Shown piece after piece: positions 50,438 through 52,128 of a DNA stretch of 64,000 bases. Made by a program: the position numbers and the translations under genes. Source of the DNA: Eledone cirrhosa (taxonomy: Eukaryota). The stretch's first letter is position 1. Each line of letters opens with the position of its first letter. The DNA is taken from assembly GCA_964016885.1 (NCBI GenBank), contig OZ024753.1:1612001-1676000 (forward strand). The letters are read 5' to 3'. The notes under the pieces are model-generated. The model ran no database searches. It saw only the letters and a list, made by a program, of their open reading frames with translations, and was not told where the DNA came from.

Positions 50438-50583
50438 AGACCCACTAATACTTCGGTCAATTCGCCGGCAACGCTAGTCCTGACGAAATAACAGTATCCC
50501 CTATTCAACAGATCACGGATATATATATATATATATATATACAATATTAAATAAATGGAAAACTATATTTATAAAACCATATT

Positions 50584-50649
50584 TATTTCATTATATATAT
50601 TTCGGGGATATCATATTAACAATATGCTATGCCTTCATCAGACAAAATA
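50584..50649 (-). ncRNA. Minimal type I hammerhead ribozyme (family B, mirror arm)
   Basis: Exact reverse complement of 50792-50857 within a palindrome with 173-bp arms. Confidence 0.8.
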
Positions 50650-50791
50650 CAATATAAACAGTTTTATAGATAAATATATTCGACATACCGTAATAAACAT
50701 CAACTTCATTTGAAGAGGTTTACTCTAGCAAATGAAGTTGATGTTTATTACGGTATGTCGAATATATTTATCTATAAAACTGTTTATATTG

Positions 50792-50857
50792 TATTTTGTC
50801 TGATGAAGGCATAGCATATTGTTAATATGATATCCCCGAAATATATATAATGAAATA
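50792..50857 (+). ncRNA. Minimal type I hammerhead ribozyme (family B)
   Basis: Stem I UAUUUUGU/AUGAAAUA; core CUGAUGA 50800-50806; long imperfect stem II 50807-50837; GAAA 50838-50841; minimal stem III U-AUAU-A; cleavage triplet AUA, cut after 50849. Confidence 0.8.
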
Positions 50858-52128
50858 AATATGGTTTTATAAATATAGTTTTCCATTTATTTAATATTGT
50901 AAATATACTCCAAGTATTTGTCGAGTGCTTTTATATCAGTTATAAATATTTACTAGTTGTAACCCAACAATTTTAAATATAACTTTAGATATATATATAT
51001 ATATATATATATATTTTCCTGATGATTTCGTTAATGAAACAGTTCTAGTCCCGTACAAGCCATGTCTATGTAAAATAAAGATGCCTATACTCTACTAACG
51101 TATTGAGAACATTTTAAACTGTAGTCATCTCCCGTTACCCTTTGGGAGTCCACCCTCTATATATACATTTATGTATACACACTCCCATATAAGGACAATA
51201 AATCGAAAATGCAGCTGAAGTCTTCTTAAGAATATTAATTTATTTATTTCCTTTACCGGTTCCACAGTTCTTATGCTTTTCAAAAATAGAATTGAGTTGG
51301 AGGGTTTGTGGTTCTTCTCGCATCTGTGAGAAAAACCATAAACCCTCCATAAATAAATAAATAAATATTCTTAAAAAGACTCCATTTACATTTTCGATTT
51401 CTTTTCCTTATACTTTCACCAATGTAGGTCATTTTACTTTCACCAATGTAGGTCATTTTCTTATATATATATATATATAGTAATTATAATAAATTTGAAG
51501 ACTAAAATCCAAAGATTCCGTTAAGGGTGAAAGCAGCGATTCTTTGCTTAAACTTTGACCTGTTGTTTTAATATACACACACACAGGAAAAAGGTTTCCA
51601 TATAATTTCCGTCTTCCAAATTCCGCTAACAAAGCATTGGTTAAGCCAATACTGCAGTAGAAGACACTTGCCGAAGGTGAGGTGCAACGAAGCAAAAGTT
51701 TTAATAAGATAGCCGTGTCTGCACACCTACACATACAATACATACTCACATATACATACATATCATGACTACACACCTACACACACACATACACACACAT
51801 ACCATGACTACACACACATACCATGACTACACACACACACACACACATTAACATACGATGTCTACATACCTACACATACAATATGCACTCATGCATACAC
51901 ACATACCATATCTACACACATACCATATCTACACACTTACACATACCATGTCTAGACACCTACACATACATACATACACATAAACATGTCTAATGTTATC
52001 TATACAAATTTCTAATAAGCCACTATAAAAAATAAAAATATACAACCACTATCACACATCAGGTCTATCCAACCCACATGAAACACACACACACACTAAC
52101 ACACACACACACACACACACACTAACAC

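Follow-up and report, generated by a model that had tools for sequence, protein, structure and literature searches.

What kind of event leaves behind a perfect palindrome with a hammerhead ribozyme pattern on each strand? The question is raised by a locus in Eledone cirrhosa, at 50540-50901 of a 64,000-nt stretch of microsatellite-rich animal DNA (hereafter the window; contig OZ024753.1 of assembly GCA_964016885.1, positions 1,612,001 to 1,676,000 of the forward strand). The initial annotation described an exact palindrome with 173-bp arms and a hammerhead on each strand, and both the coordinates and a descriptor scan agree with this. The arms (50540-50712 and 50729-50901) are exact reverse complements with 0 mismatches, and the region 50522-51015 folds at -296.7 kcal/mol (z = -41), with none of 100 shuffles as stable. 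The features of the locus, and of related or similarly built repeats in the window, are listed in Table 1.

Table 1. Coordinates in the window of the palindrome and its parts, of its relatives and of other palindromes of the same build
Feature	Position	Strand	Description	Basis
Left (TA)n run	50520..50541	.	Likely target site; last bases common to arm end	Sequence
Left inverted copy, 191 nt	50540..50730	-	3' end is the short end (~50540), without tail; 5' end takes in the spacer	
Hammerhead motif, type I (predicted), mirror copy	50584..50649	-	Core 50641-50592; predicted cut after 50592	Descriptor
Spacer, 16 nt	50713..50728	-	Native element sequence of the left copy	Contig loose ends
2-nt overlap, CA	50729..50730	.	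Common to 5' ends of both copies; inferred microhomology junction	Contig ends/starts
Right forward copy, 262 nt	50729..50990	+	Ends at the long 3' end	
Hammerhead motif, type I (predicted)	50792..50857	+	Core 50800-50849; predicted cut after A50849	Descriptor, covariation
One-sided 3' tail, ~89 nt	50902..50990	+	Start uncertain by ~6 nt (element TA-rich there)	
Right (TA)13 run	50989..51014	.	Likely target site	Tandem-repeat analysis
Relative, 76% identity	32950-33235	-	Hammerhead; no inverted half; ends in (TA)n where the right copy ends	
Relative, weak match (E 7e-6)	60816-61036	-	Hammerhead; no inverted half; ends in (TA)n where the right copy ends	
Palindrome	35570-35767 (with extension to 35847)		91-bp arms, 4 mismatches, 16-nt spacer; one-sided extension ~80 nt	
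Palindrome	29919-30031 (with tail from 29842)		52-bp exact arms, 9-nt spacer; left copy tail ~78 nt	
Palindrome	650-799		75-bp arms, 3 mismatches; next to (TA)n	

The insertion as a whole is asymmetric. The element had been said to continue beyond the right arm, and it does so as far as about 50990, where it meets (TA)n; the two window relatives stop at the same place. The left arm had been read as an inverted partial copy, which is correct in that it has no tail; however, its 5' end lies 18 nt beyond that of the right copy, and the right copy alone owns the 89-nt 3' tail, so that each copy holds template sequence that the other lacks. Neither, then, is likely to be a plain copy of the other, which calls either for two primings or for one priming followed by a deletion at the centre. 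The tail carries two small predicted hairpins (50906-50927 and 50954-50970), the first of which begins 5 nt past the short end and is invariant in three copies; only 1 of 11 pairs in these hairpins shows a compensatory change. There is (TA)n on both sides of the insertion, and a target-site duplication is unreadable within this microsatellite. The mirror stops at the element boundaries, and the unique flanks show no mirror symmetry. Two further repeats adjoin the insertion, namely a perfect tandem array (55-bp unit, 4.1 copies, 100% matches) at 50210-50437, 80 bp to the left, and another high-copy repeat that starts right after the right (TA)n run (51014-51115) and has relatives near 43952-44090.

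The identity of the arms had been attributed to very recent formation or gene conversion. The arms are indeed identical, but 0 mismatches in 173 positions limits their divergence only to below about 1.7% (95%), so recency is bounded to that extent. Gene conversion was rejected as unnecessary, since one template in one insertion yields identical copies from the start; in the origin proposed below, the arms are identical because both were copied from the same template.

The predicted ribozyme on the + strand has a helix I of 8 bp (50792-50799 with 50850-50857), CUGAUGA at 50800, a long, imperfect helix II, GAAA at 50838 and a minimal helix III of 2 bp with a self-complementary loop (self-complementary segment 50841-50848). 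Four cores in the 64-kb window pass the strict descriptor (the two in the palindrome, 33142 on the - strand and 61026 on the - strand), and none passed in any of 50 block-wise dinucleotide shuffles. An earlier version of the descriptor, which allowed no bulge in helix II, missed the cores of the palindrome and caught only those of the two relatives, and was replaced by an energy rule. When the hammerhead structure is drawn over the four window copies, 91.7% of cells are paired compared with 81.8% in shuffled sequences, and six pairs have changed on both sides; as the structure was drawn from these same four sequences, this covariation is supportive but not independent. Helix II is weak in the palindrome copy (-2.1 kcal/mol versus -8.2 and -8.8 kcal/mol in two relatives). 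Position 50837 is C here and T in 64% of the depth in sequencing run X1; with C there, helix II has an A.C opposition unless it slips, past an extra A, to a G-C closing pair.

Searches with general RNA models did not recover the motif. Rfam gave no match at the gathering score over the whole window, and at E values up to 10 it gave 18 matches in 50300-51300, none to a hammerhead family; these sub-threshold matches, mostly to miRNA models, were set aside as reflecting the hairpin only. The unconstrained fold of the hammerhead region alone is not better than shuffles (z 0.2-0.7), as expected of an AT-rich minimal motif, and the support for the ribozyme is the core pattern together with the covariation. 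One possible third hammerhead, a CTGATGA...GAAA string at 51019 in the right flank, does not pass the strict descriptor and was discarded. A looser pattern finds further CTGANGA...GAAA cores at 4968, 10168, 19098, 32649 and 59837 on the + strand and at 43283 on the - strand, several with self-complementary helix III segments, and all of these also fail the strict descriptor. Run X1 additionally contains a joint from 50849 to 50792 (depth 629), leading from the predicted cut site to a point shortly before the core; this looks like a hammerhead unit of about 60 nt that may be tandemly repeated in some copies, or it may be an alignment artefact.

The three copies within the window share the long 3' end and vary in their 5' extent, and contigs of other copies have 5' ends lying directly on TA runs. 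In the relative at 33 kb, about 160 nt lie upstream of the hammerhead, and they do not lead back into tail sequence. The short 3' end, in contrast, was found within this family in the palindrome copy alone, and that it represents a fixed start point is inferred from other repeat families in the window. The same build (short end, long end, and a short spacer or none) recurs in three other, dissimilar window repeats (Table 1), two of which have diverged arms. The palindrome at 35.6 kb carries hammerhead-like cores on both strands (35680 on +, 35657 on -), which were not accepted as true hammerheads, as the base of helix II has no closing pair and they fail the strict descriptor. The palindrome at 29842-30031 apparently contains only the 3' half of a hammerhead, and its tail opens with an ACTC...GAGT hairpin, as does that of the 50540-50990 element. 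By eye, the 650-799 repeat recurs as single copies near 51480-51575 and 61130-61260. More inverted repeats lie beside (TA)n at 27007-27116, 37555-38125 and 39511-39706. At 15588-16064, a central microsatellite separates two tail-to-tail copies that by eye are kin to the 29.9-kb element and about 93% alike; both have the same outer end point, and the arrangement is the reverse of the usual head-to-head build.

Public sequencing runs add many copies from elsewhere. Between 4787 and 5497 contigs per run, flank repeats counted in, aligned to 50300-51300 in X1-X3, which are three runs of one sample and may come from another individual or species. The repeat bearing the hammerhead is abundant, with many related copies. 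For the 81-nt centre of the palindrome, some contigs of related copies match 50690-50730, from the left arm to beyond the spacer at 50729/50730 (0 differences in one of them), before passing into other native sequence. Others begin at 50729, and their loose ends differ from the reverse complement of the spacer by one letter at most (3, 2 and 6 contigs in X1, X2 and X3, respectively). Because contigs of related copies run through, or end in, the spacer sequence, the spacer is native element sequence in the polarity of the left copy. The sense sequence found natively upstream in the loose ends at 50730 (X1-X4) is pyrimidine-rich, ends in CTAG and resembles a 3' splice site. As four more of the listed junctions have their turn no more than about 7 nt away, the point near 50730 may be a preferred stop.

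Other fold-back-like junctions, with varied turning points, are present among the contig joints listed, and some forward copies begin only at 50880-50918, near the short end. These joints are from contigs aligned at 85% likeness, nearly all with fewer than 30 letters on the shorter side, and are given little weight. The positions of seventeen of those listed were converted; four others, which ran backwards or lacked the look of a fold-back from arm to arm, were left out. In 7 of the 17, the inverted copy reaches +1 to +14 past the ribozyme cut, a cluster that may reflect detection bias, as many subfamilies match only downstream of 50838. At the locus itself, no contig among the longest X1-X3 pieces listed bridges the junction (50701-50758), two raw reads from X7 aligned there and neither bridges it, and the unique left flank (50436-50503) has zero cover in X1-X4. 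The missing reads at the junction neither confirm nor refute the locus, and show no polymorphism.

Taken with these relatives, the palindrome is best explained as two head-to-head, differently truncated copies of the end of an abundant repeat with a predicted hammerhead, which a Penelope-type reverse transcriptase/endonuclease acting in trans probably wrote into (TA)n in one event. The hammerheads would then be passengers of the element end. The initial annotation had likened the locus to the inverted, truncated pseudo-LTR pattern of Penelope-like element (PLE) insertions, and the anatomy, the relatives and the published descriptions, all cited here from the part of their text that is available, are in agreement. 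Endonuclease-bearing (EN+) PLEs are described as having an inverted 5'-truncated copy, a one-sided tail of 30-40 bp and a bias towards (TA)n (PMC8557442), and palindromes are known at PLE head-to-head junctions (PMC3846280). Here, likewise, 5'-truncated copies have a common 3' end, an inverted 5'-truncated copy is adjacent and head-to-head with a palindromic junction, the tail is on one side only, the target is AT-rich (TA)n, and the repeat end includes a predicted type I hammerhead motif with a minimal palindromic helix III. Unlike the insertions described in the available part of PMC8557442, the palindrome consists of the end only, without an ORF, and its tail is about 89 nt rather than 30-40 bp. 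Recently active Penelope families have been reported in Octopus vulgaris (PMC13282606). The locus is a young-looking, ordinary Penelope-type end insertion that works like a Penelope insertion and shows every structural feature that was testable.

The hammerheads themselves resemble the minimal hammerheads of metazoan PLEs in their type I core, long helix II, optional extra nucleotide before helix II, and palindromic helix III plus loop 3, and differ from those in the accessible text in having a helix I of 8 bp (4-5 bp there), a weak helix II and, in the family register, the A.C opposition (PMC4209133). Schistosoma PLEs carry dual minimal hammerheads on opposite strands 100-700 bp apart, compared with about 160 bp between the two opposite-strand cores of the palindrome (PMC4209133). 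No direct description of cephalopod hammerheads was found in the literature searched, most subscription papers being outside its reach.

Coding sequence for the enzyme was sought in the window. Truncated ends lack an ORF by nature, and there is no RT-GIY-YIG ORF at the locus or among the 129 open frames scanned, from a total of 368 high-complexity window frames of at least 45 aa; Pfam gave no GIY-YIG match in these 129, and returned 7tm_1, one RVT_1 fragment and other weak matches. The RVT_1 fragment (23594-24301, + strand, E 1e-10) is a piece of reverse transcriptase that we take to be LINE-like, and a weak Transposase_1 remnant lies at 58509-58700 (- strand). Two 17-nt motifs of the family have no exact match in one supplementary file of PMC8557442.

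The source of the copied RNA could be a different one. A non-autonomous, retrozyme-like family, namely a short tandem or circular hammerhead repeat without its own ORF, is a possible but less likely source; the palindrome would then be a sub-monomer insertion and the mobilizing enzyme would still be a PLE protein. Metazoan non-LTR retrozymes are likewise small, non-coding, AT-rich repeats with a type I hammerhead and a reverse transcriptase borrowed from another element (PMC7229834; bioRxiv 10.64898/2026.07.22.740005), those of animals have been proposed as non-autonomous PLE derivatives (bioRxiv 10.64898/2026.07.22.740005), and no ORF was found near any window copy. However, the defining feature of the retrozymes in these descriptions, same-strand tandem hammerheads, is absent: there is one hammerhead per strand, and Tandem Repeats Finder detected no array of same-strand hammerhead monomers in 49600-51700. 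The 33-kb relative, with its upstream sequence that does not return to the tail, also argues against a tandem source, and the combination of minimal helix III and long helix II matches PLE hammerheads (PMC4209133). At 50540-50990, the locus is not a retrozyme array.

Given a Penelope-type insertion, it remains to account for the two unequal copies. The (TA)n target would be cut on both strands. Reverse transcription would start near 50901, the inner point, when primed by one DNA end, and near 50990, the outer point some 89 nt further in the 3' direction, when primed by the other. Synthesis of both cDNAs would end 120-138 nt to the 5' side of the ribozyme cut site, and the 2-nt CA/TG overlap would then serve to join them, whether directly or after fold-back and fill-in of the left cDNA. 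That both ends of one (TA)n cut primed reverse transcription of the same RNA in this way, from two fixed points separated by about 89 nt, of which the inner is just ahead of the conserved small hairpin, with the cDNAs joined head to head by microhomology, is a reading to which we give an even chance. It has a counterpart in Poseidon of Anolis carolinensis, whose protein cuts both strands of AT-rich DNA in vitro and has two internal reverse transcription start sites that bracket the tail (PMC11167929); such sites, with a cut of both strands of an AT-rich target, would yield a short and a long 3' end. The available description of Poseidon differs in that its ORF begins in the hammerhead and its tail is short, whereas no open frame follows the ribozyme here (PMC11167929).

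An insertion of the same class that differs at this one step appears unlikely, though not negligibly so. A single cDNA primed at the tailed outer end would fold back, extend by DNA-templated synthesis to an internal TA-rich stretch and anneal to the other target end, and a small central deletion, which could also leave the spacer on the left copy, would come later. A self-priming step has been suggested before for the palindromic junctions of PLEs (PMC3846280). The element is TA-rich around its short end, which offers microhomology with (TA)n (position 50902 is T in 21% of X1 depth), and X1 and X2 each have one contig with its turn at nearly the same point and little or no spacer. However, the spacer sits on the copy without a tail, for which the fold-back of a tailed cDNA needs a second event, and the mismatch-free arms leave little time for one. 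The listed joints in which a forward copy starts near the short end also fit two primings better, although weakly.

An artefact of read fold-back or assembly at the locus is very unlikely. It would account for arms that are 100% identical, and the exact junction is unconfirmed in the source reads, but the mirror ends at element boundaries with the unique flanks unmirrored, the spacer is native family sequence, fold-back junctions of the same family are present in contigs of the public runs, and the window contains three other palindromes built alike, whose arms in two cases have diverged, as those of a chimera could not. A MITE or fold-back DNA transposon with long terminal inverted repeats is more improbable still. 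The locus is a short, non-coding inverted repeat in a TA context, as such an element would be, but it is asymmetric, with the 89-nt tail outside the inverted repeat; neither terminal inverted repeats at both element ends nor uniform copies were found, as relatives lack the inverted half, turning points differ between copies, and the window relatives combine variable 5' truncation with a fixed 3' end and a covarying hammerhead.

Hammerhead viroids (Avsunviroidae) and retroviroid-like elements carry a hammerhead in both polarities of a strongly base-paired RNA. The initial annotation noted that transcription in either direction would give a similar rod, superficially viroid-like, and a long rod is predicted on read-through, with a hammerhead core on each strand. 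The likeness is indeed superficial, and an RNA of this type that replicates as a circle through a hammerhead in each polarity is the least credible of the explanations: the two ribozymes are mirror copies of one sequence rather than distinct foldable ribozymes that release monomers in both polarities, the second arm of either transcript holds the ribozyme, preceded by its own complement (pairing predicted at 0.999), no unit-length monomer can be freed with a single cut per strand, and most relatives seen are single-polarity fragments of a repeat family dispersed in the genome. Viral contigs and metagenome contigs, scanned for the pattern, gave 0 matches. Moreover, helix III is of the minimal, dimer-dependent type, for which single motifs showed no cleavage in vitro and dimers showed low cleavage (PMC4209133). 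The palindrome copy, locked in the 173-bp hairpin of a read-through transcript, is therefore likely neither self-cleaving nor circle-forming, as judged from the predicted fold.

A GPCR gene lies nearby. An exon of a neuropeptide receptor 15-like GPCR is located at 46522-47259 (- strand), with a protein from Argonauta hians as its closest relative (83% identity), which points to an octopod as the likely host. The palindrome had been placed about 3.4 kb upstream of the GPCR start codon, and this distance is right for the first in-frame ATG of the exon (47121, - strand), which is 3419 bp from 50540. The Argonauta homologue aligns only from residue 114 of the open frame, leaving out a long N-terminal stretch rich in serine, so the gene may really start some 0.2 kb farther from the palindrome. 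Distance is the only link seen between palindrome and gene; a read-through transcript, if made, would offer A-to-I editing or small-RNA production a perfect 173-bp hairpin to act on near a neuropeptide receptor gene.

As an object the palindrome is ordinary, one of several such insertions in the window and of many in the genome. Within the literature searched, it departs from what is in print in its longer tail and in an explicit footprint of two primings; that search found no direct description of double priming for PLEs and did not extend to most subscription papers. Its value is mechanistic, in that each half owns template sequence missing from the other, for which a single fold-back needs a second event. 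The origin of the inverted copies and one-sided tails of PLEs is called unresolved in the available parts of PMC8557442, PMC3846280 and PMC11167929. Double priming, if true, would derive both from one mechanism, and would replace the model of antisense self-priming.
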